Below are positions 8,525 through 64,000 of a DNA stretch of 64,000 nucleotides, piece after piece. Numbering within the stretch: the stretch's first letter is position 1; each line of letters opens with the position of its first letter. This stretch comes from Alphaproteobacteria bacterium (GTDB lineage Bacteria; Pseudomonadota; Alphaproteobacteria; CALKHQ01). The notes beneath the pieces were generated by a model. The model saw nothing but the letters and a program-made list of their open reading frames with translations, was not told the DNA's origin and ran no database searches. Location: positions 1,024,001 through 1,088,000 of the forward strand of contig CBDDFZ010000001.1 of NCBI GenBank assembly GCA_965227515.1, given 5' to 3'. The position numbers and the translations under genes were made by a program.

Positions 8525-8612
8525 AGTCGGTACCGGCCCGCGCCCCGTCCCGGCCACCCAGGAATCATACTGTCGTTGGGTGGCCGAGAGGGGGTGCGGG
8601 CTGGCGCCGACT
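8525..8612. repeat. family A hairpin core, copy 2 (diverged, no clear terminal IRs)
   Basis: AGTCGGTACCGGCCCGCGCCCC..CGGCCACCCA / TGGGTGGCCG..GGGGTGCGGGCTGGCGCCGACT. Confidence 0.75.
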
Positions 8613-8636
8613 TCAACACGACTTCAATACATAGAA

Positions 8637-9008: not shown

Positions 9009-9153
9009 ATGACCCCCGACGTATGTGGTGATGACCCCAACGGAGGGTCGTACAAGCAACGAAGGGTGTCAGGCTAGCGCACTTTGATGGCGGACAACAG
9101 TGCGGTAATCGGCACGCGCCAACCGCAGCCTGGCCAACCGCAGTCTGTATGTA

Positions 9154-9576
9154 TCAGCCTCGGCCGAACCAGCGGCGGCGGCCGCGGCGTTCGCCGGCCG
9201 GCGCGGTGCGATGCTCGGCGGGGTCGTCCAGCGTCTGGCCGGACGCCAGTTCCAGCGCGGTCCGGGGGTCGATGAATGGCCAGCGCCGGCAGATCAGGGC
9301 GGCGGCGCGATGAACGGCCTGCTCGGGCGAAGCGGTGCAGGCGGCTTGCCAGCGCGCCTGTTCGACGATGGCGACCAGTTCGTCGCCATCGATGGCCGCT
9401 TCTTCGGCATCAGAACCGAGGTCGTCATCGTCCGCGGCGTCCTGCGACGGGATGGGGTCGCCCCCGTCGACAATGGAGGGGTCGGGTCCATGCAACCAGC
9501 TGAATGGGGCGCGCGTCACGGCAATCCGGCCTGCAGTAGGGCGTGGCCCGTTCGACCACGCGGGGGATGCCGACAT
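9154..9576 (-). CDS. hypothetical protein
   Basis: Fills the gap downstream of modC on the same strand; acidic stretch then helical segment; start uncertain. Confidence 0.45.
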   Translation of the reverse strand: MSASPAWSNGPRPTAGRIAVTRAPFSWLHGPDPSIVDGGDPIPSQDAADDDDLGSDAEEAAIDGDELVAIVEQARWQAACTASPEQAVHRAAALICRRWPFIDPRTALELASGQTLDDPAEHRTAPAGERRGRRRWFGRG

Positions 9577-9620
9577 TTGACCCCGGCTTGGTTAACCGAT
9601 GGTTGCGATCCTGGGCGCCA

Positions 9621-10769: not shown

Positions 10770-11470
10770 GACCCTGCCTGCCCGATCCTGCGGCGGGCAC
10801 GGGCGGCAAGTGCCTCCGATGCGAGCAGGGCCGCGAACGCGATCACCAGGGAGATCACCACCAGGCGGGTCGCCTCGTCATCGTGACCGGGCTGCTGGGT
10901 GAGCTGGAACAGGGCCAGCGGCAGGGTCTGGGTTTCGCCCGGAATGTTAGAAACGAAGGTGATGGTGGCGCCGAATTCGCCCAGGCTGCGCGCGAAGGCG
11001 ACGGTGGCACCGGCCAGCAGGCCGGGCAGCGCCATCGGCATGGTGACCGACCAGAACGCGCCCCACGCGCTGGCGCCCAGCGTGCGGGCGGCCAGTTCCA
11101 GCCGGCGGTCGATGGTCTCCAATGACAGGCGGATGGCCCGCACCATCAGCGGGAACGCGATCACGGCCGACGCGATGGCCGCCCCCTGCCAGGTGAAGGC
11201 GACCGTGATGTCGAAGGTGTCGTACAGCCAGCCGCCGACCGCGCCCCGCCGGCCGAGCACGACAAGCAGCAGGTAGCCCACCACGACCGGCGGCACCACC
11301 AGCGGCACATGGACCAGCGCGTTGAGCAGCGCGTGGCCGGGAAAGCGCCGCCGGGCCAGCAGCCACGCCACCGCGACGCCGAACGGCAACGAGCACACGG
11401 TGCTCCACAGCGCGACACGCAGGCTCAGCACCAGCGCTTCCAGCTCGAACGGGGTCAGCGACAGGTCCAT
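10766..11470 (-). CDS. modB: molybdate ABC permease
   Basis: PLVVPPVVVGY, FPLMVRAIRLS, FARSLGEFGAT. Confidence 0.95.
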   Translation of the reverse strand: MDLSLTPFELEALVLSLRVALWSTVCSLPFGVAVAWLLARRRFPGHALLNALVHVPLVVPPVVVGYLLLVVLGRRGAVGGWLYDTFDITVAFTWQGAAIASAVIAFPLMVRAIRLSLETIDRRLELAARTLGASAWGAFWSVTMPMALPGLLAGATVAFARSLGEFGATITFVSNIPGETQTLPLALFQLTQQPGHDDEATRLVVISLVIAFAALLASEALAARARRRIGQAGS

Positions 11471-11471
11471 T

Positions 11472-11637
11472 CTAGTGTCCCGAATCTGAGGTTCGTCACA
11501 GTGTTTGCTGGCCTCGATCGAACTTCAGATTCGATTGGGACACTAGCAAGCTATTGAATCTAGTGTGGTTTCTGGTTTCGAAGTTCGTCAAGATGGCTGC
11601 GGCGATAATCGGACGAACTTCGAATCCACCACACTAG
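11472..11637. repeat. bipartite CTAG-bounded palindromic element (family B)
   Basis: Two hairpins, 11472-11546 and 11560-11637, each CTAGTGT...GTTCG/CGAAC...ACACTAG; lower GC than flanks. Confidence 0.8.
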
Positions 11638-11667
11638 GGTGCGATCAAGATCGGTACGGCCATCGGA

Positions 11668-12501
11668 TCAAGGTGCGAGCAGGCCATGGGCGATGAGCGC
11701 ATCACGCCCCTCCGGCCCCGCGATGAAGGCACAAAACGCCGCCGCGGCCTCGCGGTCGCCATCGGCGACGATGCCGGCCTGATAGACGATGGGCGCGTGC
11801 AGCTCTGCTGGGATCTCCAACAGGATGTCAACGCCGTCCGTATTGGCGGCGTCGCTGCGATAACCGATGCCGGCGGCGACCTCGCCGCGCGCCACCAGCA
11901 CCAACAGGGCCGCCGCATTGGCGGCATTGACCAGCCGGGACTCGAACTCGGCCCACACCCCTGCCCCCTGCAGCGCCTCGCGGGCATAGGTACCGACCGG
12001 GGCTGCCGCCGGGTCGCCGATGGCCAGCCGATCGTCGCCGACCAGCCTCGACAAATTGGCAAGCGTGGCGAGCGGTGCCTCCGGGGCTGGCAGATCCGCC
12101 GCGCGCATCACCACCAGGCGATTGCGCGCGATCGCGGTCACGCTGTCGGCCGTTACCGCGCCCGCCGCCGCCAGATAGGTCATCCAATCCACATTGGCGG
12201 CGACATAGAGATCGGCGGGCGCGCCCTGTTCGATCTGGCGCGCCAGCATGCCGCTGGATCCTGGCACGATCAGCAGATCGTGGCCGGTCTGCTCGTGGAA
12301 TGGCACGCGCATTGCTTCGATGACGTCGGCAAGGCTGGCAGCCACATAGACCCTGACCTCGCCCGCGAAGGCCTGCGCGCCCGACAGTGCACTCGACAGT
12401 GCAAGGGCGCCGATTGCCACGACGATGGCCAGGGCGGCAGCGAGGAAGGAGCGCCCGGTTGCGCGCAGATGGGTCAAACGGTGTGCCAGTTCTGGTGCCA
12501 T
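11668..12501 (-). CDS. modA: molybdate ABC substrate-binding protein
   Basis: VAASL, GSSGMLARQIEQGAPADLY, AIGDPAAAPVGTYA, HAPIVY. Confidence 0.92.
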   Translation of the reverse strand: MAPELAHRLTHLRATGRSFLAAALAIVVAIGALALSSALSGAQAFAGEVRVYVAASLADVIEAMRVPFHEQTGHDLLIVPGSSGMLARQIEQGAPADLYVAANVDWMTYLAAAGAVTADSVTAIARNRLVVMRAADLPAPEAPLATLANLSRLVGDDRLAIGDPAAAPVGTYAREALQGAGVWAEFESRLVNAANAAALLVLVARGEVAAGIGYRSDAANTDGVDILLEIPAELHAPIVYQAGIVADGDREAAAAFCAFIAGPEGRDALIAHGLLAP

Positions 12502-12674
12502 GTCGCGGGCTGATTCGGGGGCCTTTTGGAGACCGCCATCGACCTGCAACCCATATCGGGCGGTTGCACGCGCGGTTGTGCTGGTCCAAGGGCCTGTGTT
12601 AGTGCAAGAGTTACATAATCAAGAGGGATTGGGCATGCAAAGCCTGATCCTGGGGGTCACGAGGGAGATACGTG

Positions 12675-13700
12675 ATGAAGAAATGCATGTTGTTGGCCGG
12701 TGCTGCGGCCACTGCGATGACCGTGAGCGGTGCGGCGTTCGCCGGTGCGGACCTTGATGCCATCGTCGAGCGTGGCGAGCTGATCTGCGGCGTCAGCACC
12801 GGCCTGGCCGGTTTCTCGCTGACCGACAGCGAAGGCACCTGGACGGGCCTGGACGTCGACTACTGCAAGGCCGTCGCGGCCGCCATTCTCGGCGATGCCG
12901 GTGCCGTCAACTACGTGCCGTTGAGCGCGCAGCAGCGTTTCACCGCCCTGCAGTCGGGCGAGGTCGACCTTCTGTCGCGCAACACCACCTGGACGCTGAC
13001 CCGCGATACCTCGCTGGGCCTGAACTTCGCCGGCGTCACCTTCTACGACGGTCAGGGCTTCATGGTGCCGGCCGATCTCGGCGTGACCAGCGCGATGGAG
13101 CTGGACGGCGCGTCGGTGTGCGTGCAGACCGGCACCACCACCGAGCTGAACCTGGCCGACTTCTTCCGCGCCAACGGCATGAGCTATGACGCGGTGGTGT
13201 TCGAGAGCCTGGAAGAATCCAAGACCGCATTCTTCAACGGCCGCTGCAACATCTACACGACCGACGCCTCGGGCCTTGCCTCGATCCGCTCGGTGGATGC
13301 GCCGAACCCGGCCGACTACGTGATCCTGCCGGAGCTGGCCTCGAAAGAGCCCCTGGGCCCGGCCGTGCGCCATGGCGACGACCAGTTCCTCGACATCGTG
13401 AAGTGGGTGGTCTACGCGACCATCGAGGCCGAGGAAAAGGGCATCACGATGGACAACGTGGCTGACATGGCCGCCAGCAGCGAAGACCCGACCGTGCAGC
13501 GCCTGCTGGGCCAGACCCCCGGCATGGGCGAGGCCCTTGGCCTGTCCGAGGACTGGGCGGTCAACGTGATCTCCGCCGTCGGCAACTATGGCGAGATCTT
13601 CGAGCGCAATGTCGGCCCCGACACCCCGCTGAACCTGCCGCGTGGCCTGAACGCGCTGTGGACCGATGGCGGGTTGATGTACGCAATGCCGGCACGCTGA
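12675..13700 (+). CDS. aapJ: general L-amino acid ABC substrate-binding protein
   Basis: LICGVSTGLAGF, QRFTALQSGEVDLLSRNTTWT, SKEPLGPAVR, VGNYGEIFERN. Confidence 0.92.
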   Translation: MKKCMLLAGAAATAMTVSGAAFAGADLDAIVERGELICGVSTGLAGFSLTDSEGTWTGLDVDYCKAVAAAILGDAGAVNYVPLSAQQRFTALQSGEVDLLSRNTTWTLTRDTSLGLNFAGVTFYDGQGFMVPADLGVTSAMELDGASVCVQTGTTTELNLADFFRANGMSYDAVVFESLEESKTAFFNGRCNIYTTDASGLASIRSVDAPNPADYVILPELASKEPLGPAVRHGDDQFLDIVKWVVYATIEAEEKGITMDNVADMAASSEDPTVQRLLGQTPGMGEALGLSEDWAVNVISAVGNYGEIFERNVGPDTPLNLPRGLNALWTDGGLMYAMPAR

Positions 13701-13774: not shown

Positions 13775-14968
13775 ATGTCCCGGACGCCCGCGCAGGCGCC
13801 CCCCGCTCAAGGTCTATTCAGCGGCGGATTGGGCAACGCCACATTGCGCGCCGTCATCTACCAAGTCGTCTTCGTCATCGTCCTGGTGGCGCTCGGCTGG
13901 TGGATCGTCAACAACACCATCGACAACCTGCGTGAACTGGAGATCCAGGCCGGCTTCGGCTACCTGTCCGAAGAAGCCGGCATGCCGATTTCCGACACGT
14001 TGGTGTCGTATGCGGAAACCGACACCTACTTCCGCGCGTTCATCGTCGGCGTCCTGAACACGCTGAAGGTCGCGGCCGTCGGTGTGGTCCTGGCCACTAT
14101 TCTGGGCACCATCGTCGGTGTGTCGCGCCTGTCGCACAATTGGCTGGTGGCCAAGCTGGCGTCGATCTACGTCGAGACCGTCCGCAACATCCCGCTGCTG
14201 CTGCAGCTCTTCTTCTGGTACTCGCTGATCACGGCGATCCTGCCGGAAAACTCAGATCCGTTCTTCCTGACATCGACCGTCGTGCTGTCCAAGGCGGGGC
14301 TGCTGTATCCCGTGCCGGTGCCGCACTTCGGCTGGCTGCTGGCGGTGATCGGCATCGTGGTTGCCATCGGCATCGCATTCTACCTCAAGCGACTTGCGCA
14401 CAAGCGCCAGGACCAGACCGGACAGCCAATGAGCATCTGGTACTGGGTGATCCTGGCACTGATTGTCTGCCCGGCCGCGGGCTGGGCAATTTCCGGCGCG
14501 CCGACCGAGTTCATCTACCCGGAGATCAACCGCTTCGGCGTGCGCGGCGGCGGCTCGATCTCGCCGGAGTTCATGGCGCTGCTGCTGGGCCTGGTGATCT
14601 ACACCGCCGGCTTCATCGCGGAGATCGTGCGCAGCGGCATCCAGGCCATCAGCCACGGCCAGACCGAGGCGTCGTTCGCGCTCGGGCTGACCCGCGGCCA
14701 GACGCTGCGGCTGGTCACGCTGCCGCAGGCGATGCGGGTGATCATCCCGCCGATGACCAGCCAATACCTGAACCTGACCAAGAACAGCTCGCTGGCGGTC
14801 GCCATCGGCTATCAGGAACTGGTCTCCATCACCAACACGACGTTGAACCAGACCGGACAGGCGATCGAGCCGCTGGCGCTGGCGATGGCCATCTACATGA
14901 CCATCAGCCTGTCGATCTCGATGTTCATGAACTGGTACGACAAGAAGATCGCGCTGAAGGAGCGGTGA
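13775..14968 (+). CDS. aapQ: general amino acid ABC permease
   Basis: RLSHNWLV, YVETVRNIPLLLQL, QYLNLTKNSSLAVAIGY. Confidence 0.9.
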   Translation: MSRTPAQAPPAQGLFSGGLGNATLRAVIYQVVFVIVLVALGWWIVNNTIDNLRELEIQAGFGYLSEEAGMPISDTLVSYAETDTYFRAFIVGVLNTLKVAAVGVVLATILGTIVGVSRLSHNWLVAKLASIYVETVRNIPLLLQLFFWYSLITAILPENSDPFFLTSTVVLSKAGLLYPVPVPHFGWLLAVIGIVVAIGIAFYLKRLAHKRQDQTGQPMSIWYWVILALIVCPAAGWAISGAPTEFIYPEINRFGVRGGGSISPEFMALLLGLVIYTAGFIAEIVRSGIQAISHGQTEASFALGLTRGQTLRLVTLPQAMRVIIPPMTSQYLNLTKNSSLAVAIGYQELVSITNTTLNQTGQAIEPLALAMAIYMTISLSISMFMNWYDKKIALKER

Positions 14969-54884: not shown

Positions 54885-56630
54885 TCAGGAAGTAAGGGCG
54901 TTTTCAGTCCGCTGCTGTACGCGTGCCAGTACACCGCGGGGCGGGTGCCGGTGCAGCAGCATGTCGTGGATTTCCTCGCCCAGGATTTCAATCAGGGTGG
55001 AGATGCCGGGCACCGGCGGCCGGGGCCACATGCGCATGAAACCGCGGCTATGGAAATCGTCGATGGCATCGATCATCGGCGAGCGCGCGCGCACCTCGGC
55101 GTCGCGGCAGACGCTGAGCCTGGCGCAGGCCAGGTTTCCGTTCATACTGAACAGCTTCATCACCTCCGGTGAGGTCAGCGAGCGTATCGCCGTCCAGGCC
55201 GCCTCCACCCGTGCAGGCTCGAGATTAGCCGGAATTGCGAGCGCATAGCCGCCCATCGGCGTGATCGGCCGCCCGCGTGGGCCCACCGGATGCGGCAGAT
55301 ATCCCGTTCGCCCGAAGGCCGCGCAGTTTTCGTTGAGCTCGAAGACCGGCGCCAGCAGCGAGTGGGAATAGGCGAAAGCGGACTCGCCACGGGCGAAGGT
55401 GGTCGCGCGGTCGTACCACGCCATGCCGAGGATGTTCGGCGGCGAGTGGTCCATCAGTTCGCGCATGAACTCGGCCGTTTGCAGCGCCTCGTCGCTCAGG
55501 AACTGCGGCACCGGCCGCCAGTCGCGGTCGACCGCCGCATCGAACCCGCCCTCCGATGCGGGAAGGCTCAGCACGCTCTGGCCGAAGGCGGCCATCATCA
55601 TCATGAAGCTGTGGCCGAGCGGCGTGCCGCGCGCGGCGTTCCACGACACGCCCCACATCCGCTCGCGCGTTCTGCTGACCAGCGGCAAGGCCCGCACTAG
55701 GTCTGCCGCCGTCCGCGGCGGCTCCAGGTCCAGGCCCTCCAGCACATCGGTGCGATAAACCAGCATCTCAGCCGTGGTGACGATGGGTACGCCGTAGCTG
55801 CGGCCCAGGTATGAGGCGCTGGAAAGCGCGTCGGGGTAGAAGTCCTCCAGGTCGGTTCCGGCGGATGCGATCAGGTCGTCGAGCGGCCGCAGCACTCCCT
55901 CCGCGGCCAGTTCGCCGAACCAGGGCAGGTCGCAGGCAAGGATGTCGTAGCGCGAACTCGCGAGCCGGGCGTTCTCCAGTATCTGCAGGCGCAACCGGTC
56001 GATGGATAGCGCGCGGCTGCTGATGGCGGTGCCGAGGATCAGCTCGACCTGACGTTTGAGCGTGTTCATCGCGGTGAATGTCGGGTCGGCGTGCAGCAGC
56101 AGGCGCAGGCCCGAGCCCGCATCCAGCCGGCGGTTGAGCACGACCGGCGGGCCGATGATCCGATCCCGGGCGGTCGCGATGCTGCCCCGATCGGCCGCTC
56201 CGCTCTGGGCGACGAAGCTCGCCAGATGTTCCCGAAGCTGTCTGGCCAGGAGACTCCAGCGCCGGAGCAGTTCGTCGGTCGGGTGCAGCGAGAACGACCG
56301 GCCGCTGCGCGTGCGCGGCCGGACCATCACGAAGTCCGATGCCCGCAACCTGTCGATCAGACGCATGGCCGAGCCGTAGCTCATCCCGGAGGCGGCGACG
56401 GCCGACGACGTGGTGACCACCTGGCCAAGGAAATGGCTGCGCAGCAGGTAGAGGATCATTTTCAGACCATGCGGGCCGCTCCGCAGGCCAAAGGTGTCGG
56501 ACACCTCCACGTCGAGCTGTTCCACAAGGTCGAGCACACGAAGCTGCGCGGGATTACCCGGCAGATGCGCGGGACCGACGTCGCCGCGCTCGTAGGGGCC
56601 TTCTGGCTCACGAACGACCGGATGCTTCAT
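54885..56630 (-). CDS. winged-HTH fused to sugar-binding domain (probable regulator)
   Basis: N-term ASGMSYGSAMRLIDRL..RPRTRSGRSFSLHP; C-term SBP motifs YDILACDLPW, LVYRTD, MGGYALAIP; no signal peptide. Confidence 0.8.
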   Translation of the reverse strand: MKHPVVREPEGPYERGDVGPAHLPGNPAQLRVLDLVEQLDVEVSDTFGLRSGPHGLKMILYLLRSHFLGQVVTTSSAVAASGMSYGSAMRLIDRLRASDFVMVRPRTRSGRSFSLHPTDELLRRWSLLARQLREHLASFVAQSGAADRGSIATARDRIIGPPVVLNRRLDAGSGLRLLLHADPTFTAMNTLKRQVELILGTAISSRALSIDRLRLQILENARLASSRYDILACDLPWFGELAAEGVLRPLDDLIASAGTDLEDFYPDALSSASYLGRSYGVPIVTTAEMLVYRTDVLEGLDLEPPRTAADLVRALPLVSRTRERMWGVSWNAARGTPLGHSFMMMMAAFGQSVLSLPASEGGFDAAVDRDWRPVPQFLSDEALQTAEFMRELMDHSPPNILGMAWYDRATTFARGESAFAYSHSLLAPVFELNENCAAFGRTGYLPHPVGPRGRPITPMGGYALAIPANLEPARVEAAWTAIRSLTSPEVMKLFSMNGNLACARLSVCRDAEVRARSPMIDAIDDFHSRGFMRMWPRPPVPGISTLIEILGEEIHDMLLHRHPPRGVLARVQQRTENALTS

Positions 56631-56756
56631 CCCGTCAGGTTAGCATGACGAGGCGCTGACGAATGATACCATCCGACAAGATGGACCGCGGCGGTGGGTC
56701 GCCAGCACGCGAAGATCCCAACGGCGACATGCAGGCGAGCCGTCCGGACCATGCGG

Positions 56757-57050
56757 TCACTCCGACCGGTCGTCGGTGGTGAACAGGGCCGCGATCCGCC
56801 AGCCATCGCCGGTTTCCACCGCCAGCATGCTGACGAGAAAGCGCAGCTCGCTCGGCGCGGCGGCCTGGCCGATCACCAGCGTCAGCGGCAGGTGCAGGAA
56901 GCCGCTTCGTCAGAAATGACGACCGGCGTGGCGTTCTCAAGATCCGGCTCCACCCGCAAGACCTCGGACTTCTGGAACACCGCCGTGCGGCTGACTATGG
57001 TGTCGGCACCCCAATAGGTCATGCCGTTGCTGACCCACAGGAATTGCGGC
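56757..57050 (-). pseudogene. 5'-truncated, frameshifted NTF2/SnoaL-like gene
   Basis: PQFLWVSNGMTYWG...VVISDEAA, then after a frame change LHLPLTLVIG...LRFLVSMLAVETGDGWRIAALFTTDDRSE*. Confidence 0.55.
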
Positions 57051-57052
57051 GT

Positions 57053-57136
57053 GGATACCTCAGCGTCGAGCTCTTCTACCCGGTCGAGTACACGAAGCTG
57101 TACCGGAGCGGCCAAGTGTAGCGCAAGTCCGACGTG
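57053..57136 (-). pseudogene. diverged fragment duplicating the 5' part of the 54885..56630 gene
   Basis: 57053-57100 matches 56499-56546 at 40/48 nt; QLRVLDRVEELDAEVS vs QLRVLDLVEQLDVEVS. Confidence 0.7.
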
Positions 57137-57258
57137 ATTTGAACTTCGAGGGGCCATTCGACACACGATCTGGTACTCGACTCTTTTCGAGCCACAAGCT
57201 ATGCTGCTCAAAAAGCAGGCAAGGGAGGAAGAAGGATGTAGTGATCGAAGGTGAGGTC

Positions 57259-58488
57259 ATGACCACCCATTACTCCCTGAGCAGCTTTATCCGGCAAGCT
57301 GCAAACCGCCATTTGGCGGAATATGCCGAGCATAATGCCATCGACCTCGGCACCGACATATCGCAGCTTAAACCAAGAACATTCCAGCCTATTTTCGAGG
57401 CAGTCATGGCGCTGCCGGAGGACGCGCGCGCCGCTATAGATGCAGACTTCCGGAAGGTCGCATTGCTGGGCAACCAAGCCGGGTTACAGCACTTGCGCGC
57501 AGAGGCCGACCATAAGGGTTTGGACCTTGGTTCCGCACTGCAGACCCAGAACAGCTTTCTCAACAAAGCGTTCTGGGCCTTCTTGAACCATCGCAACGTC
57601 TTTGACCGAGCATCACGGTTCGCGACGCCGCATCTGACCGGACGCTACTGGAAGCGCGGGCTGCCGCTCGTCAGCGCACCGGGCATCGAACTCGGCGACC
57701 GGGTAGACGTCTTGAGAGAAGCCATCAGCCTTCACTTCTTCAAGGAAGAGGGGCGCGGGCGGGCTTGCAAGGTCGACTACGACGCCCGACGACCGAGCCA
57801 CATGTTCTACGCCTTCCCAGAGGATTACCCCGCCGCCCCGCTGGCCTGGTTGCGCGATGAACTGGCGCCACATCCGTTCCGGCCAGCCTTCGAGGTTGTG
57901 TTTGTGTATCGCGACGATGACGGCACCCTTGACGTGTATTTCGAGGGCGCGAAAGCGAGCGTCGATCAACTGTGGCAATTGTTCGCCAGATCGGTCCTCG
58001 GGCTCACCGACCTGCCGACGCTCACAAAGCCAGCCTACTGGCTGGAGCCGCTAAAGTCGTCCTCGTTCTCGTTCACTTGGCCAATTCAGGCACCTATCAC
58101 CTCCGTTCGAACCAAGCGCCTGACGTTCGCGACGATGGGTGACACGCCGACCAGGGTCTCAGTGACGTCCGATGTCTCGAATGATGGATCCGCTCTTCAC
58201 CGCGCGATCGATCGACTATTCGTTCGAGATGGGCCATCGGTGGGGCGCATGTCGCTCAATCATGCCAGGGTCGTCGGTGCTCAGTTGCAAGCGGTCGTAG
58301 ACCATCACGACGGCACACGGCCCAAAACGCGCTCTTTCGATATCTCAGAGCAGTCTTGCGCTCTGAAGCATGATGGAGATGACCTGCACTTGCGGCACAT
58401 GCTAGCCGCCAGCGGCATTGACCGAACCACAGGTTTTTCAAGTGATGACGCCCCAGCAGGATCGCGCACTCAACGCGCTGCTGAGTGA
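57259..58488 (+). CDS. hypothetical island protein A (409 aa)
   Basis: GAGG RBS; MTTHYSLSSFIRQ, EGRGRAC, AFPEDY, RPAFEVVFVY; lower GC. Confidence 0.8.
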   Translation: MTTHYSLSSFIRQAANRHLAEYAEHNAIDLGTDISQLKPRTFQPIFEAVMALPEDARAAIDADFRKVALLGNQAGLQHLRAEADHKGLDLGSALQTQNSFLNKAFWAFLNHRNVFDRASRFATPHLTGRYWKRGLPLVSAPGIELGDRVDVLREAISLHFFKEEGRGRACKVDYDARRPSHMFYAFPEDYPAAPLAWLRDELAPHPFRPAFEVVFVYRDDDGTLDVYFEGAKASVDQLWQLFARSVLGLTDLPTLTKPAYWLEPLKSSSFSFTWPIQAPITSVRTKRLTFATMGDTPTRVSVTSDVSNDGSALHRAIDRLFVRDGPSVGRMSLNHARVVGAQLQAVVDHHDGTRPKTRSFDISEQSCALKHDGDDLHLRHMLAASGIDRTTGFSSDDAPAGSRTQRAAE

Positions 58489-59446
58489 TTTGATTGCTCG
58501 GCTTGCTGCCTCGGGCGGCGACCCAATCTCAATCCAAAGGGATGAATTCCGACCCCCTCAGCATGGCGGCCTGCGGGTGTTTGAAGCTCAATATCTCCTG
58601 AGTCCCATTGAGCCCCGAAGGTCGGTTATCTGCGACGGCTGCGAGCGCAGATGCCCTATGGAGGTGACATTTGAGGCCAGGCGAGGCAGACCGGCAGACG
58701 CCTTCGTTGTCTGCGACAAGCGCACGGACATAGCTCGAGTTCCAGTTGATATGCGTCGGCTGTCCCGATGGTCGCTATCCCTGCAAACAGTCGGCCACGT
58801 CCTCAAGTGGGTGATGCCAACAAGCCAATATCCTTATCGCCTTGACGGTGACGAGTTCTGGAGACTGGGGCGGTTTGCACAACACAGCCACAAGGATGAA
58901 ACGGTCGACGTGGTCCTCCTGGAGCAACTCGGCGACCAGCCAATGGAAGCCGGCCTCGTGATCGTGCTTTCGCGAACTTCGCAACCCATTGGCGCTGGCG
59001 TTGTAGCTCTACCGGACCTGCTGTTGGTCAAGGACGGCCGCCTGAGCGTCAACAGGACCGCACTCCGCCGCGCCCTGGAAGGGCCTCGCGAAGACGATGG
59101 CCGCATAGCGTGTGAAATCCGCTTCGGCCTTGGCGAAATCCTGCTTGTCAATCACGTGACACGGCAGCGAACCGTCCTTGCGCGTCCAAATTTCAACTCG
59201 TCGAACGACAACGCATTTCAGGTGCTTTTCGCAAAGCCTGGCGTGAGATTCACACTCTCGGAACTTCGCGCGGCCGCAGGGGACCAAACAATCGTAGGCC
59301 TGCACAAATTGGTCGAGAATCTCCATTTCGAAGGGCTGTTAAAGGCGGTCTTTTTCCGCGTATCGAAGGATGCGATCCAGTTTCGAAGACATGTAACCGT
59401 AGGCGAACTTGCCACCCATGGCATCGATCCGAGGGAAATCGTCTAA
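58445..59446 (+). CDS. hypothetical island protein B with putative Zn ribbon
   Basis: CDGCERRC...VCDKR; overlaps gene A by 44 bp; possible C-terminal winged helix. Confidence 0.75.
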   Translation: MTPQQDRALNALLSDLIARLAASGGDPISIQRDEFRPPQHGGLRVFEAQYLLSPIEPRRSVICDGCERRCPMEVTFEARRGRPADAFVVCDKRTDIARVPVDMRRLSRWSLSLQTVGHVLKWVMPTSQYPYRLDGDEFWRLGRFAQHSHKDETVDVVLLEQLGDQPMEAGLVIVLSRTSQPIGAGVVALPDLLLVKDGRLSVNRTALRRALEGPREDDGRIACEIRFGLGEILLVNHVTRQRTVLARPNFNSSNDNAFQVLFAKPGVRFTLSELRAAAGDQTIVGLHKLVENLHFEGLLKAVFFRVSKDAIQFRRHVTVGELATHGIDPREIV

Positions 59447-59537
59447 CACTGTCGGTTCGCTCCCGATCCATCCCCATCCGTCCCTTTCTATCCCCACCAT
59501 GACGACGTGAGCCCGCCTGCGGCCGTATCCGGTCGTC

Positions 59538-59720
59538 ATGGCAAGGTCGATTCCCGATCCGCTCGATGTCGTCGCGATGCGGCTGCGCTGCCTCGAAGAC
59601 GCTGACCTGAGCGAGGTGGAAGCGGTCGAAGCCGGGCGCAACTTGGCCGGCTTCATTGCGTTGCTGGCGCGGATCGACGGCGCGCCATCCAAGCGAGGTG
59701 ATGCCAATGAATGTGACTGA
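59538..59720 (+). CDS. small helical hypothetical protein
   Basis: LSEVEAVEAGRNLAGFIALLARID; overlaps next start. Confidence 0.6.
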   Translation: MARSIPDPLDVVAMRLRCLEDADLSEVEAVEAGRNLAGFIALLARIDGAPSKRGDANECD

Positions 59721-60015
59721 AGTGGAAATCGCGTTCGTTAAGCCGCGAAACGGGCTGATCGCGTTCGCCAGCTTGGTGCTCGATGACCAGCTCTACCTCA
59801 GCGGCATCGCGATCCATCGCAAACTCGACGGCGGCGGCTACCGCTTGACCTACCCCACCCGCAAGATCGGAGACCGGTCGATCGACATCTTCCATCCAAT
59901 CCGGCGGCCAATTGGCCAGGCCATCGAGACGGCCATTCTCGAAAAGCTGAACGACGTAGTGAGCAAGTGCGATGCTGGATACGGTTGCGCTGAGTCTCGA
60001 CACACGCGCCTTTGA
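59707..60015 (+). CDS. SpoVG-family nucleic-acid-binding protein
   Basis: MNVTEVEI..GLIAFASLVLDDQLYLSGIAI...YP.RK....DIFHPI...IETAILE; GAGG RBS. Confidence 0.82.
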   Translation: MNVTEVEIAFVKPRNGLIAFASLVLDDQLYLSGIAIHRKLDGGGYRLTYPTRKIGDRSIDIFHPIRRPIGQAIETAILEKLNDVVSKCDAGYGCAESRHTRL

Positions 60016-61129
60016 GATCCTCGATCCCGGCCGGTTCAGTCCCTCGGCAGTGGGCCTGCTGCAGCCGCCCTACTACCCGCTCGGCGGCCGAGGTAACATT
60101 GCCTGCGTGCAGAACCCGACCAAGGCCGACTTCGCGGCCGGACGCTACCTGCCGAGGCTGACGCTGGCCAAGCGCAAGGTGCGTGGTGGATTCTCGATCA
60201 CGCTCCGGGTCGAGTTTTCCGCACCCAAGTTGGTCTACGGGAACAACTTCGACGAGCTGACATCGCGCGAGTTCGACGTGGTGGTCGATACGCTGCGCCA
60301 CGCGCTGGCGAGCATGGGTGTTCGGGTCAGCGACTACGACCTACGTGCAGCCAACGTCTCGACGGTGCACTACAGCAAGAATGTCTGCTTCACCGACTAC
60401 ACGACCTGCTCAATGGTGATGCGCGAACTCGACCTGATCGACCTCGACGGTCGCCTGGATCTCTCGCATACCGACTACCGCAACAACGGTCACGCCATAC
60501 GCTATCACGCCAACAGTTTCGAGCTGACGTTCTACGACAAGATGCGCGACCTGGAGAAAGCCAGGTTCAGCGAGAAGCGCGCAATCGAACAAGACAATCG
60601 TATTCAGGCCGACCTGTTCAGCGAGCGGGACGATCTACCGAAGCAGCTCGAGGTCCTGCGGATGGAGGTCCGGCTGGGCAACCGCACCAAAATCAAGGGC
60701 CTGCTGAAGCGCATCGGCGCCGACATCGAGCCGACCTTCGCGGCGCTGTTCGATGCAAGCCTGGCCAAAGACGTGCTGCTGCACTTCTGGGAGCAGATCA
60801 GGCGGCAATTGCCGCTCGCCGGACAGACCGCGGACCGCCGGCCGGAGGAGTTGCTGTCGACCCTCGCCGCTGCTTCGGACGGCAACGCGCGACCCGGCGC
60901 CCTTCTGCAGCAGCTCGGTTGCGTCCTGCTCGTCGCCTCGGTTGGCGTGCGCGGCGCCGGCGCCCTGATGAGCCGCCATTGCAGCAACCGATCCTGGCAA
61001 CGCTACAAACGGCAACTGCGCGAACTGAACATTCCAGCCACGAATCGGTTCAGCGCTCTTGACCAGGTGGGCGACACCCTGTCCAGATTCCACCCCTTGA
61101 GACTCGCCGACATCACCCAACTCACGTGA
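59972..61129 (+). CDS. putative rolling-circle replication initiator (Rep_trans / phage gene II-X-like)
   Basis: MLDT, EFSAPKLVYGNN, LTFYDK, LRMEVRL motif series. Confidence 0.6.
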   Translation: MLDTVALSLDTRAFEILDPGRFSPSAVGLLQPPYYPLGGRGNIACVQNPTKADFAAGRYLPRLTLAKRKVRGGFSITLRVEFSAPKLVYGNNFDELTSREFDVVVDTLRHALASMGVRVSDYDLRAANVSTVHYSKNVCFTDYTTCSMVMRELDLIDLDGRLDLSHTDYRNNGHAIRYHANSFELTFYDKMRDLEKARFSEKRAIEQDNRIQADLFSERDDLPKQLEVLRMEVRLGNRTKIKGLLKRIGADIEPTFAALFDASLAKDVLLHFWEQIRRQLPLAGQTADRRPEELLSTLAAASDGNARPGALLQQLGCVLLVASVGVRGAGALMSRHCSNRSWQRYKRQLRELNIPATNRFSALDQVGDTLSRFHPLRLADITQLT

Positions 61130-61141
61130 GAGACCACACTG

Positions 61142-63562
61142 ATGGCCATCAAGAAGTCAGAACTCTACGCCTCGCTGTGGGCCAGTTGCGACGAGTTGCG
61201 CGGCGGCATGGATGCCAGCCAGTACAAGGACTACGTCCTGGTGCTGCTGTTCATCCGCTACATAAGCGACAAGTATGCCGGCGTGCCCTATGCGCCGATC
61301 ACGGTACCCGAGGGCGCCAGCTTCAAGGACATGGTCGCCCTGAAGGGCAAGCCGGACATCGGCGATCAGATCAACAAGAAGATCATCGGTCCGCTGGCCA
61401 ACGCGAACCAAGAGCTGTCGCAGTCCGACTTCCCCGACTTTAACGACCACACCAAGCTGGGCAGCGGCAAGGAGATGGTTGACCGGCTGACCAACCTGGT
61501 CGCTATCTTCGAGCGCAAGGCGCTGGATTTCTCCAGGAACCGGGCCGACGGCGACGACATCCTGGGCGACGCCTACGAGTATCTGATGCGCCACTTCGCC
61601 ACCGAGAGCGGCAAGAGCAAGGGCCAGTTCTACACGCCGGCCGAGGTAAGCCGGGTGATGTCCCAGATCATCGGCATCCGAAGCGCCGTCACCGGGCCCG
61701 ACACCACCGTCTACGACCCGACCTGCGGCTCCGGGTCGCTGCTGCTGAAGGTGGCCGACGAGGCGAGAACCACGGTCACGCTCTACGGCCAGGAGAAGGA
61801 CGCCACCACCAGCGGCTTGGCGCGAATGAACATGATCCTGCACAACGTGCCTACTGCGCTGATCATGCAGGGCAACACGCTGACCGACCCGAAGTACAGG
61901 GACGGCGAGGCCCTGAAGACCTTTGACTACGTCGTCGCCAATCCGCCCTTCTCGGACAAGCGCTGGAGCACGGGGCTCGACCCGCTGCACGACCCGCATC
62001 ATCGCTTCCAGCCGTTCGGCGTGCCGCCGGCCAAGCAGGGCGACTATGCCTATCTGCTGCACATCGTGCGATCGCTGAAGAGCACGGGCGCCGGCGCCTG
62101 CATCCTGCCGCATGGCGTGCTGTTCCGAGGCCATGCCGAGGCCGACATCCGCCGGGCCCTGGTGCGCAAGGGCTACATCAAGGGCATCATCGGGCTGCCG
62201 GCCAACCTGTTCTACGGGACCGGCATCCCGGCCTGTATCGTCGTGGTCGACAAGCGCGACGCCGCGGCCCGCGAGGGCATCTTCATGATCGACGCCAGAG
62301 CCGGGTTCATGAAGGACGGGCCGAAGAACCGGCTTCGGTCCCAGGACATCCACAAGATCGTCGACGCCTTCAACCGGCAGCAGGAGATCCCGAGCTATGC
62401 CCGCATGGTCGGCTACGCCGAGATCAGGAAGAATGACTTCAACCTCAACATCCCGCGCTACATCGACAGCCGGCAGCCGGAGGACCTGCAGGACATCGAG
62501 GGCCACCTGAAGGGCGGGATCCCGGTCTCCGACATCGATGCGCTGCAGCGCTACTGGGACGTCTGTCGCGGCCTCAGGACAACCCTGTTCCGGGACAACC
62601 GCCCCGGCTACGTTGACCTCGCTGTCGACAAGGCGGAAATCAACGCAACGATCTACGGCCATCCTGAGTTCTCTGCCTTCGTCGCAGACATGAACACCCA
62701 CTTCGCCGCCTGGAGGGACCGCAGCGCCGCGACTCTGAAGGCTCTCGCCGCCGGGTGCGACCCGAAGCAGGTGGTCTTCGACCTTTCGGAGGACCTGCTG
62801 GCGCACTATGGCGGCAAGCCGCTGATTAACGGCTACGACGTCTACCAGCACCTGATGGACTATTGGGCCGACACGATGCAGGACGACTGCTACCTGATCG
62901 CCGCCGACGGCTGGCGGGCCGAGACCTATCGCGTCATCGAGACAGTCAAGAGCGGCAAGAAGAAGGGCCAGGAGAAGGACGTAGGCTGGGCGTGCGATCT
63001 GGTTCCCAAGCCCTTCATTGTCGAACGGTATTTTGCAGACGAGCAGGAAGAAATCGAGCTGCTCACCGCTGACATCGAAAGTGTCATCGCGCAGCTGGCC
63101 GAACTGGAGGAGGAGCACGGCGGAGAGGACGGCGCATTTTCCGAGTTCGAGAAGGTCAACAAGGCCAACGTAGCGGCTCGCCTAAAGGAGATCCGGGGCG
63201 ACAGGGACGCTAGAGACGAGGCCGCCGCGCTCAATGACTGGATCAAGTTCGACAGGCAAGAGACCGATCTCAAGAAGCGTTTGAAGGATGCTGAGGCCGC
63301 GCTCGACGCCAAGGCTTACGCCCACTATCCGAAACTGACCGAGCCCGAGGTCAAGGCGCTGGTGGTGGACGACAAGTGGCTCGCCACACTGGATGCAGCC
63401 ATCCATGGCGATATGAATCGCGTGAGCCAGCAGCTCTCTACGCGCGTGAAAGAGCTTGTTGAACGATACGAGACAGCTCTGCCGCAATTGGCCAACCGCG
63501 TGGCGGAACTTGAAGACAAGATAAAACACCATCTCGAAAGGATGGGGTTTGCATGGACCTAA
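61142..63562 (+). CDS. hsdM: type I R-M methyltransferase subunit
   Basis: LWASCDELRG, GQFYTP, YDPTCGSGSLL, ANPPF, LPHGVLFRG. Confidence 0.95.
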   Translation: MAIKKSELYASLWASCDELRGGMDASQYKDYVLVLLFIRYISDKYAGVPYAPITVPEGASFKDMVALKGKPDIGDQINKKIIGPLANANQELSQSDFPDFNDHTKLGSGKEMVDRLTNLVAIFERKALDFSRNRADGDDILGDAYEYLMRHFATESGKSKGQFYTPAEVSRVMSQIIGIRSAVTGPDTTVYDPTCGSGSLLLKVADEARTTVTLYGQEKDATTSGLARMNMILHNVPTALIMQGNTLTDPKYRDGEALKTFDYVVANPPFSDKRWSTGLDPLHDPHHRFQPFGVPPAKQGDYAYLLHIVRSLKSTGAGACILPHGVLFRGHAEADIRRALVRKGYIKGIIGLPANLFYGTGIPACIVVVDKRDAAAREGIFMIDARAGFMKDGPKNRLRSQDIHKIVDAFNRQQEIPSYARMVGYAEIRKNDFNLNIPRYIDSRQPEDLQDIEGHLKGGIPVSDIDALQRYWDVCRGLRTTLFRDNRPGYVDLAVDKAEINATIYGHPEFSAFVADMNTHFAAWRDRSAATLKALAAGCDPKQVVFDLSEDLLAHYGGKPLINGYDVYQHLMDYWADTMQDDCYLIAADGWRAETYRVIETVKSGKKKGQEKDVGWACDLVPKPFIVERYFADEQEEIELLTADIESVIAQLAELEEEHGGEDGAFSEFEKVNKANVAARLKEIRGDRDARDEAAALNDWIKFDRQETDLKKRLKDAEAALDAKAYAHYPKLTEPEVKALVVDDKWLATLDAAIHGDMNRVSQQLSTRVKELVERYETALPQLANRVAELEDKIKHHLERMGFAWT

Positions 63563-64000
63563 GCAACGAGTATAAGAAGACAGAGTTGGGAAGACTTCCA
63601 AAGAATTGGAAGATTGAACCTGCGCGCAACTTTTCGACAATAAGAACAGGTCCATTTGGAACAGTCCTCAAGGCATCAGAGTATTCAAAGACAAGCGGTG
63701 TACCGCTTATCTCAGTCGGCGAAATTCGCGAAGGATTCCTGGAAATTTCCGACCGCACGCCGCTCGTTTCTGACGTTGTCACGCGACGACTGCCTCAGTA
63801 TGTCTTAAGAGGGGGCGACATCGTTTTTGGAAGAAAAGGTGCAGTTGATAGGTCTTCGTTAATAAGAGAGTGGCAAGCCGGTTGGTTCTTAGGATCTGAT
63901 GGCATATACATGAGGCTGAACATAGATTTACATGAGGCCTATGTAGCATATCAATTTCAGAGCGCGCGTGTCCAAAGTTGGCTTCTTCAGTACGCTCTCG
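63553..64000 (+). CDS. hsdS: type I R-M specificity subunit (runs off right edge)
   Basis: Not in ORF track. Manual translation MDLSNEYKKTELGRLPKNW..IRTGPFGT..GVPLISVGEI..GDIVFGRKGAV; overlaps hsdM stop. Confidence 0.9.
   Translation, partial: MDLSNEYKKTELGRLPKNWKIEPARNFSTIRTGPFGTVLKASEYSKTSGVPLISVGEIREGFLEISDRTPLVSDVVTRRLPQYVLRGGDIVFGRKGAVDRSSLIREWQAGWFLGSDGIYMRLNIDLHEAYVAYQFQSARVQSWLLQYAL

Follow-up and report, generated by a model that had tools for sequence, protein, structure and literature searches.

A three-gene core, composed of a 60-codon reading frame (p60), a SpoVG-like gene and a gene for a 385-residue protein (p385), recurs in many bacterial phyla as part of an island with swappable restriction-modification (R-M) cargo. 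The example considered here begins near the end of a stretch of 64,000 nucleotides of alphaproteobacterial DNA, referred to as the window. The three genes probably form the conserved core of an integrative mobile island that is sited at a tRNA gene, replicates by a rolling circle and carries exchangeable cargo. A search of the main text of open-access papers and bioRxiv found no description of an element in which SpoVG is combined with both a serine recombinase and a Cri/Rep_trans-like protein. The initial annotation had proposed a Rep-like module of a capsid-less element with defence cargo, and this reading is supported, none of the three outcomes that it had named as counting against it being observed; that the SpoVG-like protein acts in the manner of pV, and that the element actually replicates, are hypothetical.

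The p60, SpoVG-like, p385, hsdM and hsdS reading frames all lie on the + strand, in DNA with a GC content of 0.56–0.65 from approximately position 57000 onward as compared to 0.66–0.71 before it. The p60 frame overlaps the longest SpoVG-like frame by 65 nt, or by 14–20 nt if the likely start codon, judged from an alignment of 30 sequences, is used. The SpoVG-like frame overlaps that of p385 by 44 nt. A gap of exactly 12 nt (61130–61141) separates p385 from hsdM, and the end of hsdM is overlapped by hsdS by 10 nt. The overlapping genes, the gap, the common strand and the lower GC content are all as first annotated. The features are collected in Table 1, in which L002 denotes the window's own locus; a window position is obtained by adding 56000 to an L002 position.

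Table 1. Features of the island and its flanking tRNA gene, in window positions unless given as L002.
Feature	Position	Strand	Description
p449	57259..58488	+	Conserved left-arm gene of the island; likely ATG at 57259, longest ORF from 57139
p342	58445..59446	+	Left-arm gene, product probably DNA-binding (from model); longest ORF from 58418
Four TCCC words, 10-nt spacing	59461..59494	.	Candidate protein-binding iterons (origin or operator)
Imperfect inverted repeat	59497..59541 (L002 3497-3541)	.	21-nt arms, 3-nt spacer; candidate nick-site or regulatory hairpin
p60	59538..59720	+	60-aa ORF, module gene 1
SpoVG-like	59701..60015	+	Module gene 2; longest ORF from 59656; likely ATG at 59701 or 59707 (alignment)
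p385	59972..61129	+	Rep_trans / Phage_CRI-like predicted initiator or nickase, 385 aa
hsdM	61142..63562	+	Type I R-M methyltransferase, first cargo gene
hsdS, 5' part	63553..64000	+	Full gene to 64845 in window numbering (L002 7553-8845)
hsdR	L002 8842-11892		Beyond window; HSDR_N/SWI2_SNF2/T1R_D3 matches
YgjP-like peptidase	L002 11892-12608		Beyond window; YgjP-like domain match
p106	L002 12652-12972		Beyond window; candidate HigB-like position
HTH_3 protein	L002 12975-13277		Beyond window; HTH_3 match
Large serine recombinase	L002 13281-14780		Beyond window; Resolvase + Recombinase matches
tRNA-Gln(ctg)	L002 14748-14821	minus	Beyond window; tRNA prediction

The p385 protein has no match among the Pfam, NCBIfam or PADLOC families, and a PDB sequence search with the protein or its profile returned nothing meaningful. 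The AF2 model has high accuracy scores (pLDDT = 91.8, pTM = 0.90) and may be considered in terms of a catalytic domain (approximately residues 1–285) that contains Tyr188 and a C-terminal domain of four helices (approximately residues 287–357). The catalytic domain is predicted to be crescent-shaped with a TBP-like curved β-sheet. In two independent fold searches, the top matches were the Rep_trans initiators RepDE and RepSTK1 (Z = 10.0 and 8.8). The best Foldseek match in the PDB was 4cwe_A, with a borderline E-value of 1.2e-3, a probability of 0.99 and a TM of 0.30–0.39. A VIA search of 48,161 chains ranked 4cwc_A first (Z = 10.0, 234 of 270 residues aligned, RMSD 4.4) and 4cij_A second (Z = 8.8), with the next tier at a Z of approximately 6. 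TBP chains follow the initiators with Z values of 5–6, and TBP is described by Carr et al. as sharing the sheet topology of Rep_trans.

Among 51 diverse homologues, residues D3, T4, E81, S83, E95, K136, N137, G173, Y188, K190 and E232 are invariant, and P85, K86, N91, N92, D189, D193, R230 and R234 are conserved in at least 90%. The DT, SxPK..GNN, YDK and RxExR motifs from which a resemblance to Rep_trans and gene II initiators had first been proposed are present and conserved across the homologues, and the tyrosine of FYDK is found in 51 of 51 sequences. For RepD, PMC4797284 describes D46 and E214 as metal ligands with D142 as a third, Y191 as the catalytic residue, and K193 and E196 in the active site. 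The order and offsets of D3, Y188, K190, D193 and E232 in p385 are those of the RepD active site, and the spacing of Y188 to the lysine at +2 and the acid at +5 equals that of Y191, K193 and E196. D3 and E232 fit the metal ligand positions; no acidic counterpart of D142 was recognised, the corresponding strand presenting H133, K136 and N137. The reading frame of pT181 RepC contains RIEFNPNKL, RIYNKK and WRVEIELKR in matching order. When the p385 profile was compared by hhalign to the single RepC sequence, only 13 columns were aligned with a probability of 0.3, elsewhere in the protein than the tyrosine. The best local alignment of the family HMM with M13 gene II protein places the tyrosine of fYDK on Tyr197, with a score (–0.8) that is not significant alone; Tyr197 is described in PMC5405960 as the residue linked to DNA.

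Thirteen of 50 p385 homologues match PF05144 (Phage_CRI, the gene II N-terminal domain) at E ≤ 0.05, and seven of these 50 exceed its cut-off with a co-linear match over profile positions of approximately 1–223 of 232. None of the homologues match PF02486 (Rep_trans), and p385 itself matches neither family at E ≤ 0.1. Thus, p385 is a relative that lies outside of the current PF05144 and PF02486 models and not a member of either as defined. From the sequence and the model, p385 appears to be a divergent member of the Rep_trans / Phage_CRI superfamily and a putative initiator or nickase, and the likeness to both groups that was initially proposed has held. The family, which comprises 1034 clusters at 50% identity and carries no name or annotation, may now be linked to a fold, likely catalytic residues and a genomic role.

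The comparison with the Rep_trans initiators (RepC, RepD and RepDE of the pT181 family, and RepSTK1) extends beyond the shared fold. In both, an N-terminal Asp, an ExxxPxK strand, a Tyr-x-Lys with an acid at +5 and an RxE strand follow one another in the same order, and a helical DNA-binding domain is predicted at the carboxy terminus of p385 as it is in the initiators. In contrast, the identity is only about 10%, PF02486 is not matched, the third metal ligand is unrecognised and p385 is approximately 100 residues longer. The Rep_trans initiators are found on plasmids, whereas p385 resides on a chromosomal island and is paired with a SpoVG-like protein and p60. The gene II / Cri family (PF05144) is the sole Pfam family reached by any p385 homologue, and the M13 gene II protein is of similar length at 410 aa.

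The SpoVG-like protein matches PF04026 over profile positions 1–79 of 82 with 36.7 bits (cut-off 29.6, E = 4.6e-9) and scores 27.4 bits against the NCBIfam SpoVG equivalog NF009749, below the cut-off of 108. By these matches it belongs to the SpoVG fold family and is not a canonical orthologue. PF04026 was found in one of 201 sampled genomes of the class, which is the window's own genome, in agreement with the initial remark that SpoVG is atypical of the class. Among loci with upstream room, the gene immediately 5' of the Rep gene is SpoVG-like in 32 of 36 from genomes and in 55 of 66 from metagenomes or viruses, so the pairing put forward at first recurs elsewhere. A prediction of the complex of p385 and the SpoVG-like protein, both entered as alignments in two runs, scored 0.00 and is neutral for or against the pairing. 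The recurrence ties the SpoVG fold to what is probably a mobile-element replication module, and to a non-sporulation role.

No family match was found for p60 in Pfam, PHROGs, NCBIfam or PADLOC. By an iterative search, 31 of 37 loci have a p60 homologue in the equivalent place, and the recurrent order of small ORF, SpoVG and Rep followed by variable cargo was borne out by the neighbourhood survey. L016, L018 and L035 lack an intervening SpoVG gene, and p60 is followed immediately by the Rep gene. It is possible that p60 serves as a recombination directionality factor or a regulator.

Downstream of p385, the hsdM product matches N6_Mtase (E = 1.6e-98), HsdM_N, TIGR00497 (278 bits with a cut-off of 242.75) and MTase_I of PADLOC (E = 0), and the hsdS product matches Specificity_I of PADLOC (E = 4e-31) and Methylase_S. 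HsdM, HsdS and HsdR are encoded in one operon as a complete type I R-M system, and the YgjP-like peptidase accompanies it as cargo. R-M genes of five types (I, ISP, IIG, III and II) lie between the Rep gene and the recombinase in 16 of the 18 loci examined, and proteins with a Bro-N domain are encoded in the cargo of L020, L022 and L041. The distance from the Rep gene to the recombinase ranges from 18 nt to 8 kb and is only 18–67 nt at several loci. The order of p60, SpoVG, Rep, cargo slot, HigBA-like pair, serine recombinase and tRNA is an architecture that can be searched for. Since anything in the cargo slot is a candidate, it predicts the sites of new defence genes.

The p106 protein has no Pfam match at E ≤ 0.01, and the gene that follows it encodes an HTH_3 protein. 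At the same position just before the HTH gene, reading frames from six of 18 loci match PF05015, and tblastn had placed p106 at that position in three of these six (L006, L011 and L026). The p106 and HTH_3 genes are described here as a candidate HigB/HigA-like pair. The recombinase that follows scores above the cut-offs for PF00239 (62.8 bits) and PF07508 (34.5 bits) and counts as a large serine recombinase; its zinc ribbon scores 17.9 against PF13408, below the cut-off of 25.3. The initial statement that no integrase is present is true of the window, but this recombinase lies 7.3 kb past the window's end. In loci with at least 6 kb of downstream room, the same recombinase is found 3' of the Rep gene and on the same strand in all 20 genome loci and all 10 metagenome or viral loci. 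Its 3' end overlaps tRNA-Gln at the window's locus; of 25 recombinase-bearing loci, the window's own included, 15 show such an overlap or direct contact with the 3' end of a tRNA, with eight amino-acid identities among the tRNAs. A recombinase clade that targets the 3' ends of tRNAs of at least eight identities may interest users of integration tools.

A genome of the same family (G001) has an identical tRNA-Gln without the island, and its identity to the window's locus begins 5 nt before the tRNA 3' end; its left flank is not syntenic with that locus. The expectation that hsdR, a recombinase and an attachment site would be met past position 64000 was correct with respect to hsdR, the recombinase and a tRNA integration site, but no direct repeat of at least 10 nt was found to bound the window's island. 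The tRNA-proximal end matches L002 861-879 in inverted orientation at 16 of 19 positions; a rough estimate places this within chance, and the match was set aside. Two repeats in relatives were also discarded as island ends: one of 20 nt in L007 is located past genes that appear to belong to the host (thiolase, LuxI/LuxR), and one of 18 nt in L011 is located past an acyl-CoA dehydrogenase.

The region 5' of p60 provides candidates for an origin. The p449 protein matches phrog_37634 of the PHROGs (E = 1.3e-13) and has homologues at the equivalent position in seven of 37 loci. The nearest ESM-Atlas clusters of both p449 and p342 are about half virus-labelled, those of p449 being unnamed. Although p342 has no match in Pfam, NCBIfam or PADLOC and Foldseek found nothing for its model (pLDDT = 87) at E ≤ 0.001, residues 223–317 superpose on DNA-binding domains of the OmpR/PhoB type (8hml_B, Z = 7.6, 84 aligned, RMSD 2.5) and residues 1–111 align to winged-helix regulators with a Z of approximately 6. 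From the model, p342 is probably a DNA-binding protein with two winged-helix domains. Homologues of p342 are encoded 5' of the p60 gene in nine of 37 loci, in addition to more distant links. The pattern of four TCCC words, which was picked post hoc, has one match in the window and none in any of 100 shuffles; relatives L008, L009 and L076 show C-rich words whose period is similar. The inverted repeat spans the p60 start codon and folds as DNA with –11.9 kcal/mol (z = –1.69). Since 15 of 200 shuffles were equally good, the hairpin is not significant alone. A hairpin of differing sequence is seen by eye at the equivalent place relative to the p60 start codon in most of 31 folded loci.

From these observations, a mechanism may be proposed. 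The island would extend over approximately 13.8 kb, from about 57000 to 70800 in window numbering, at the 3' end of tRNA-Gln, and would be moved by the large serine recombinase at its far end. After excision, p385 would nick one strand of the circle at an origin that is probably within the iteron and hairpin region just 5' of p60. Tyr188 would form a covalent bond with the 5' end, and Asp3, Glu232 and a third ligand would coordinate a metal. The nick would then prime rolling-circle replication, by which the element is amplified and single strands are made. The SpoVG-like protein and p60 may serve as translationally coupled accessory factors, for example in binding the origin or single-stranded DNA or in recombination directionality. 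The exchangeable cargo slot would lie between the Rep gene and the HigB/HigA-like pair with the recombinase, and both the candidate toxin-antitoxin pair and the R-M system may stabilise the island.

Direct traces of a circle were sought in available sequences. Terminal repeats that indicate a circular contig were seen in none of 81 metagenome or viral loci, and neither a circle junction nor an empty site was seen among assembled contigs aligned to the island; those of one run span the island and those of a run from another study include small identical pieces. The distribution is patchy, with the Rep-like gene found in two of 401 genomes of the class, the window's own included. If circular replication is real, R-M systems could spread between phyla by means of this element, a route that can be tested. 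A bolder proposal, which we consider doubtful, is that the islands are unrecognised cross-phylum, capsid-less single-strand replicons that reside in tRNA genes by way of a serine recombinase, exit as rolling-circle single strands coated or marked by the SpoVG-like protein and spread by hijacking helper phages or DNA-uptake machinery, shuttling entire R-M systems between lineages as far apart as Alphaproteobacteria and the CPR.

The same genes may be read in other ways. If p385 were mainly a MOB_T-like relaxase, the island would be classed as an integrative mobilisable element, with an oriT of its own at which it is nicked and a conjugative pore supplied by another element. The MOB_T class is described as relaxases related to rolling-circle replicases (bioRxiv 10.64898/2026.01.13.699239), conjugative-transposon proteins are placed in Rep_trans by Carr et al., and no transfer genes were detected when 51 ORFs from the cargo and 63 from the left flank were scanned with Pfam, as expected of such an element. 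This is nevertheless unlikely, given that by sequence p385 and its homologues are nearest to phage gene II (PF05144) and not to PF02486, that the window's own genome (99.67% complete) shows no VirB4-type ATPase (PF03135) and that neither a coupling protein nor an oriT was identified. Many of the hosts named in the records of relatives are Saccharibacteria, Dojkabacteria, Peregrinibacteria and Paceibacterota, in which, to our knowledge, conjugative systems have rarely been reported. It is also improbable that the island is a phage satellite that excises, replicates by a rolling circle and is packaged either by a filamentous helper, as are TLCphi and RS1, which are satellites of Vibrio cholerae, or by a tailed helper in the manner of PICI-type elements; in that case, SpoVG could coat or mark the single strand. 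In favour, PMC6744903 describes TLCphi as a satellite that integrates, encodes a repressor and a Cri endonuclease of the rolling-circle type and lacks its own capsid genes, and PMC6813254 describes inoviruses that carry toxin-antitoxin pairs, recombinases of the serine or tyrosine type and Rep genes for rolling-circle replication. The PHROG match of p449, the viral labels near p449 and p342, the Bro-N proteins in the cargo and the presence of one relative on an IMG/VR contig all fit a satellite, as does an ORF before p60 in L034 that resembles a small terminase subunit (phrog_83, E = 1.7e-8; PF05119, 26.3 bits with a cut-off of 24.7). However, this terminase-like ORF was seen at a single locus out of many, no packaging signal was recognised and a tblastn search with p385 gave nothing among 50,697 phage records. 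The same kind of search in a plasmid collection also gave no match. Moreover, the Zot/pI-type family PF05707 has no match in the window's own genome, and no coat, Zot or capsid family is present among the 114 flank and cargo ORFs.

Finally, the module may assist the serine recombinase through directionality, bending or strand opening without replicating, or it may be the remnant of a decayed replicon. The linkage to a recombinase in 30 of 30 loci with downstream room agrees with a helper role, as does the fact that neither an origin nor a circle was found here. Also in favour, the directionality factors known for large serine recombinases are unrelated proteins that are either small or linked to replication. 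Against it, a protein of 385 aa with a full Rep_trans fold exceeds the needs of such a factor. That catalytic-type residues are invariant across the family's 1034 clusters points to an enzymatic activity that has been maintained and speaks against decay. Either role is very unlikely.

The rolling-circle island that is preferred here may be set beside several known elements. SCC-type cassettes have large serine recombinases and variable cargo, lack transfer genes and target rlmH. The island is likewise a recombinase-driven chromosomal element with variable cargo and no transfer genes; the target is instead the 3' end of tRNA genes, and the replication genes and hosts differ. With respect to integrative conjugative elements, the type IV secretion genes that define them were absent from the scanned ORFs. 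The pI/Zot ATPase and coat genes by which inovirus prophages are recognised were also absent from these ORFs, and the genome has no PF05707 match. TLCphi, like the island, is integrative and without capsid genes. The island differs from TLCphi and the filamentous phages in the absence of inovirus structural or Zot genes, in the failure of p385 itself to match PF05144, and in the partner of the nickase-like protein, which is SpoVG-like as opposed to gene V. For integration, the island relies on a large serine recombinase and tRNA genes as opposed to Xer and dif.

Pipolins, tycheposons and other integrative defence platforms provide a parallel in concept: a small element that integrates at a tRNA by means of a recombinase, encodes a replication protein of its own and carries exchangeable defence cargo. 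Tycheposons are defence-platform elements with primase/helicase replication genes. In pipolins, the replication protein is described as PolB (PMC11551731). The island contrasts with both in its Rep_trans/CRI nickase-like protein, its use of a serine recombinase in place of the usual tyrosine recombinase, its SpoVG gene and a cargo that consists almost only of R-M systems.

The protein encoded by the 385-aa ORF (p385) had no match in Pfam, NCBIfam, PADLOC or the sequences of the PDB, and its more than 1000 homologues in 90% clusters are all unnamed or "hypothetical". At 50% identity the family comprises 1034 representatives with E ≤ 1e-3, 409 of them with E ≤ 1e-30. An AlphaFold model calculated from an alignment of 51 diverse members (32–64% identity to the query) was confident (pLDDT = 91.8, pTM = 0.90). 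The initial annotation had likened p385 to Rep_trans and filamentous phage gene II initiators, and the structural searches bear this out. A Foldseek search of the model against the PDB placed RepDE first (4cwe_A, E = 1.2e-3, probability 0.99), with 4cwc and 4cij also in the top ten and low TM-scores (0.30–0.39). An independent, all-against-all VIA search of 48,161 chains returned 4cwc_A at rank 1 (Z = 10.0, 234 residues, RMSD 4.4) and 4cij_A at rank 2 (Z = 8.8, 217 residues). At the next tier (Z about 6), p385 residues 288–357 matched the core-binding domains of tyrosine recombinases, and the N-terminal sheet matched TBP, a fold described as having the same sheet topology as Rep_trans (Carr et al., PMC4797284).

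The sequence evidence agrees with this assignment of the fold. The Phage_CRI family (PF05144) matched 10 of the 51 aligned members (best E = 5.1e-7) and, in a second set of 50 homologues, 13 at E ≤ 0.05; seven of these exceeded the 21.7-bit cut-off and were co-linear, with profile positions 1 to about 223 (of 232) aligned to residues 1 to about 241. Rep_trans (PF02486) matched none of the p385 homologues scanned. Twelve residues are invariant in the 51-member alignment (D3, T4, F22, E81, S83, E95, K136, N137, G173, Y188, K190 and E232), among them Y188, the tyrosine of the FYDK motif that had been singled out as the likely nicking residue. In RepD, the catalytic Y191 has R189, K193 and E196 nearby, and the metal ligands are D46, D142 and E214 (Carr et al., PMC4797284). 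The candidate counterparts in the p385 family are D3 for D46 on the first strand, Y188 for Y191, K190 for K193 (Tyr +2), D193 for E196 (Tyr +5) and E232 for E214 on the R-x-E strand; no counterpart of D142 was found. The partial ORF of pT181 RepC contains RIEFNPNKL, RIYNKK and WRVEIELKR in the same order as RVEFSAPKL, TFYDKM and LRMEVRLGN of p385; the p385 profile against the single RepC sequence aligned the ExxxPxK strand alone. When the family HMM is aligned locally to the M13 gene II protein, the best match, not significant by itself, sets the tyrosine on Tyr197, reported as the residue joined to the nicked strand (PMC5405960), and the RxExR strand on VRFEARI. Taken together, these data place p385 among the divergent relatives of the Rep_trans/Phage_CRI initiators, outside both current Pfam models.

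The coordinates, gene order and common plus strand of the ORFs had been correctly described from the window, and 36 kb beyond its end was fetched for analysis. Reading past position 64000, as had been proposed, located both hsdR and a recombinase. GC content drops at about 57000 from 0.66–0.71 to 0.56–0.65, and the low-GC stretch extends to about 14800 of L002, the locus that includes the DNA past the window (L002 coordinate = window coordinate minus 56000).

Features of the module and of the right side of the island
Feature	Window	L002	Strand	Remark
p60 (60-aa ORF)	59538-59720		+	ORF
SpoVG-like ORF, longest frame	59656-60015		+	ORF and PF04026
p385 (385-aa ORF)	59972-61129		+	ORF
hsdM	61142-63562		+	12-nt gap after the 385-aa ORF
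hsdS	63553 onward	7553-8845	+	after hsdM
hsdR		8842-11892		
YgjP-like metallopeptidase		11892-12608		
106-aa ORF		12652-12972		
HTH_3 protein		12975-13277		
Large serine recombinase, 499 aa		13281-14780		Resolvase and Recombinase domains pass their cut-offs
tRNA-Gln(ctg)		14748-14821	-	

An alignment of 30 homologues suggests that the SpoVG-like gene starts at 59701 or 59707. Its product passes PF04026 (36.7 bits, cut-off 29.6) and falls below the NCBIfam SpoVG equivalog cut-off (27.4 vs 108), so it is not a canonical orthologue. The view that SpoVG is atypical for alphaproteobacteria held, since this gene was the sole PF04026 match in a sample of 201 genomes from the class, the window's own among them. 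The neighborhood was compared across 39 loci from species-representative genomes and 81 from viral and metagenome contigs, the latter with six duplicate groups. The expected pairing recurs: where at least 300 nt of upstream sequence was available, the Rep-like gene starts at the 3' end of a SpoVG-like gene in 32/36 genome loci and 55/66 others. The 60-aa ORF is likewise a genuine gene: in an iterative search, a p60 homologue lay just upstream in 31 of 37 loci and never elsewhere. The module thus keeps a set order in overlapping frames, with p60 first, in most cases SpoVG next, and Rep last. A minority of elements have no SpoVG gene (L013, L016, L018, L035 and 11 metagenome loci), so SpoVG is dispensable in at least some family members; in three of these four genome loci (L016, L018 and L035) a p60-like ORF is immediately 5' of the Rep gene.

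At the right side, the recombinase gene overlaps tRNA-Gln, its end lying 33 nt within the 3' portion of the tRNA gene. Beyond the tRNA gene GC content returns to 0.68–0.73 with ordinary genes (Ppx/GppA, FtsJ). In G001, a relative of the same family, the same ppx gene lies after an identical tRNA-Gln and there is no island; its identity to the window begins 5 nt before the tRNA 3' end, which fixes the right junction. Another islandless relative carries about 55 nt resembling the recombinase 3' end beside tRNA-Gln (L052, G003:C123, about 3350–3405), which may be the scar of a lost island. Wherever at least 6 kb follows the Rep gene, a recombinase homologue is found downstream on the same strand (20/20 loci from genomes, 10/10 others), and every locus without one ends before that distance. 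The tRNA scan covered 32 of the 39 genome loci, the seven short ones being left out. In 15 of 25 recombinase loci (24 from genomes and the window's own) the recombinase gene terminates within or directly against the 3' end of a tRNA gene on the minus strand (Gln, Pro, Arg, Glu, Gly, Asp, His or Asn). The recombinase frame of L002 and its homologues runs into the opposite-strand tRNA gene, which varies by locus, so the last codons are encoded by tRNA sequence.

Between the Rep gene and the recombinase lies a slot for cargo. The distance is 18–67 nt in eight genome loci, 0.6–0.9 kb where a small pair alone intervenes, up to 7.5 kb in other loci and 8.15 kb in the window. The 18 loci examined gave 58 candidate ORFs, of which 51 were scanned after seven small ones on the minus strand had been set aside. 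R-M genes are present in 16 of these loci, and the variable cargo that had been anticipated takes several forms: type I (L004, L005, L029, L041), type ISP (L007, L011, L023, L027, L036), Eco57I-like (L016), type III-like (L026, L035), a methylase with a Bro-N protein (L020, L022), ScaI with a methylase (L037) and SNF2 with a methylase (L008). Abi_2 in L027 and HEPN_Swt1 in L005 are additional; the cargo of L006 and L025 contained no R-M genes. In 6/18 loci the ORF in the position of the 106-aa ORF, just 5' of the HTH gene, matched a HigB-like toxin family, followed by an HTH_3 gene and then the recombinase.

The left end of the island is somewhere in 56631–57259. A 55-nt stretch at 56499–56553, from the 5' coding part of a 581-aa regulator/solute-binding gene adjoining the island (54885–56630, minus strand), recurs with 80% identity at 57053–57107 in low-GC DNA, within a 109-aa minus-strand ORF; the repeat may be a piece of a paralogous gene at the left border and could bear on the position of the end. 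The 581-aa protein itself has an unusual architecture, with an N-terminal region of about 200 residues without a family match and a periplasmic solute-binding domain (SBP_bac_1). Of the left-arm genes, p449 accompanies the module in 7/37 loci and p342 in 9/37, with more distant p342-like genes in further loci; the p342 model has two winged-helix domains, of which the C-terminal is of OmpR/PhoB type (Z = 7.6). On the left of the module, 16 loci yielded 67 candidate ORFs; the 63 scanned had no hit to Zot, coat, capsid or secretion families and included more defence-like genes (STAND NTPases, AAA_15 with YaaC, methylases and Vsr). At L014 (4527–8294), L084 (4701–8459) and L028 (5755–8644) these are large STAND NTPase genes and an AAA_15/YaaC-like pair, so the left arm may be a second site for defence cargo. 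Between p342 and p60, four TCCC words are spaced at exactly 10 nt (59461–59494; 0/100 shuffles). Next comes an imperfect hairpin spanning the start codon of p60 (59497–59541), which is not significant alone. Judged by eye, a hairpin of other sequence occupies the same place in most of 31 folded loci, and a subgroup shares a CCCAGCTATTA(A/G)CC word ahead of it. We infer that this region is the best candidate for an origin or operator.

Each part is of a familiar type: a putative nickase of Rep_trans/CRI type, SpoVG, a large serine recombinase, a HigBA-like pair and R-M systems. No description of their combination, fixed order, cargo slot and cross-phylum spread was found in open-access papers and bioRxiv, supplements excluded; one genomic-island survey gives serine-recombinase integrases as <1%. 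The best reading of the island is an integrative element with a rolling-circle Rep. The Rep would nick the excised circle and initiate its rolling-circle replication, and the R-M system and putative toxin-antitoxin pair would serve as cargo and stabilisers. A non-replicative role of the module beside the recombinase is the least likely reading because the catalytic-type residues are invariant.

The single strands could be meant for mobilisation, with a conjugative pore borrowed from elsewhere, a reading that draws on the MOB_T class, reported to be formed by relaxases related to rolling-circle replicases (bioRxiv 10.64898/2026.01.13.699239). Alternatively, a helper phage could package them. 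The Vibrio cholerae satellite TLCphi is described as integrative and as encoding a Cri endonuclease for replication (PMC6744903), and inoviruses as combining rolling-circle Rep genes with serine or tyrosine recombinases and toxin-antitoxin pairs (PMC6813254). In the homologous locus L034, the ORF directly 5' of the p60 homologue (7893–8237) matches a phage small terminase subunit (PF05119, 26.3 bits; phrog_83, E = 1.7e-8), a single case that hints at such packaging.

The Rep-like gene is rare in the window's class (2/401 genomes, own included), occurs in 0/3 genomes of its family and is present once in its own genome, which had no match to PF05707 (Zot) or PF03135 (VirB4). A tblastn search with p385 found no match in 50,697 phage and 72,556 plasmid records. 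By record title, the hosts are Alphaproteobacteria (including Rickettsiales, Micavibrio and Rhodospirillaceae), Gammaproteobacteria, Deltaproteobacteria/Thermodesulfobacteriota, Verrucomicrobiota, Planctomycetales, Elusimicrobiota, Omnitrophota, Saccharibacteria, Dojkabacteria, Peregrinibacteria and Paceibacterota. One metagenome-assembled genome carries the element twice, on separate contigs (L008 and L009); in L008 (1–330; 1626 onward) p449 is preceded, at a distance of 1.3 kb, by the 3' end of another recombinase gene, an arrangement that suggests tandem elements. In L055 (6571–7143), the sole IMG/VR contig with the module, the serine recombinase is succeeded by a fragment of a tyrosine integrase and by a DNA methyltransferase, and a second mobile element may adjoin. 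Eight small contigs from run X2, of a different study (2018), are identical to parts of L002 4373–14958 at a depth of 2–3; thus, the same island exists in another sample.
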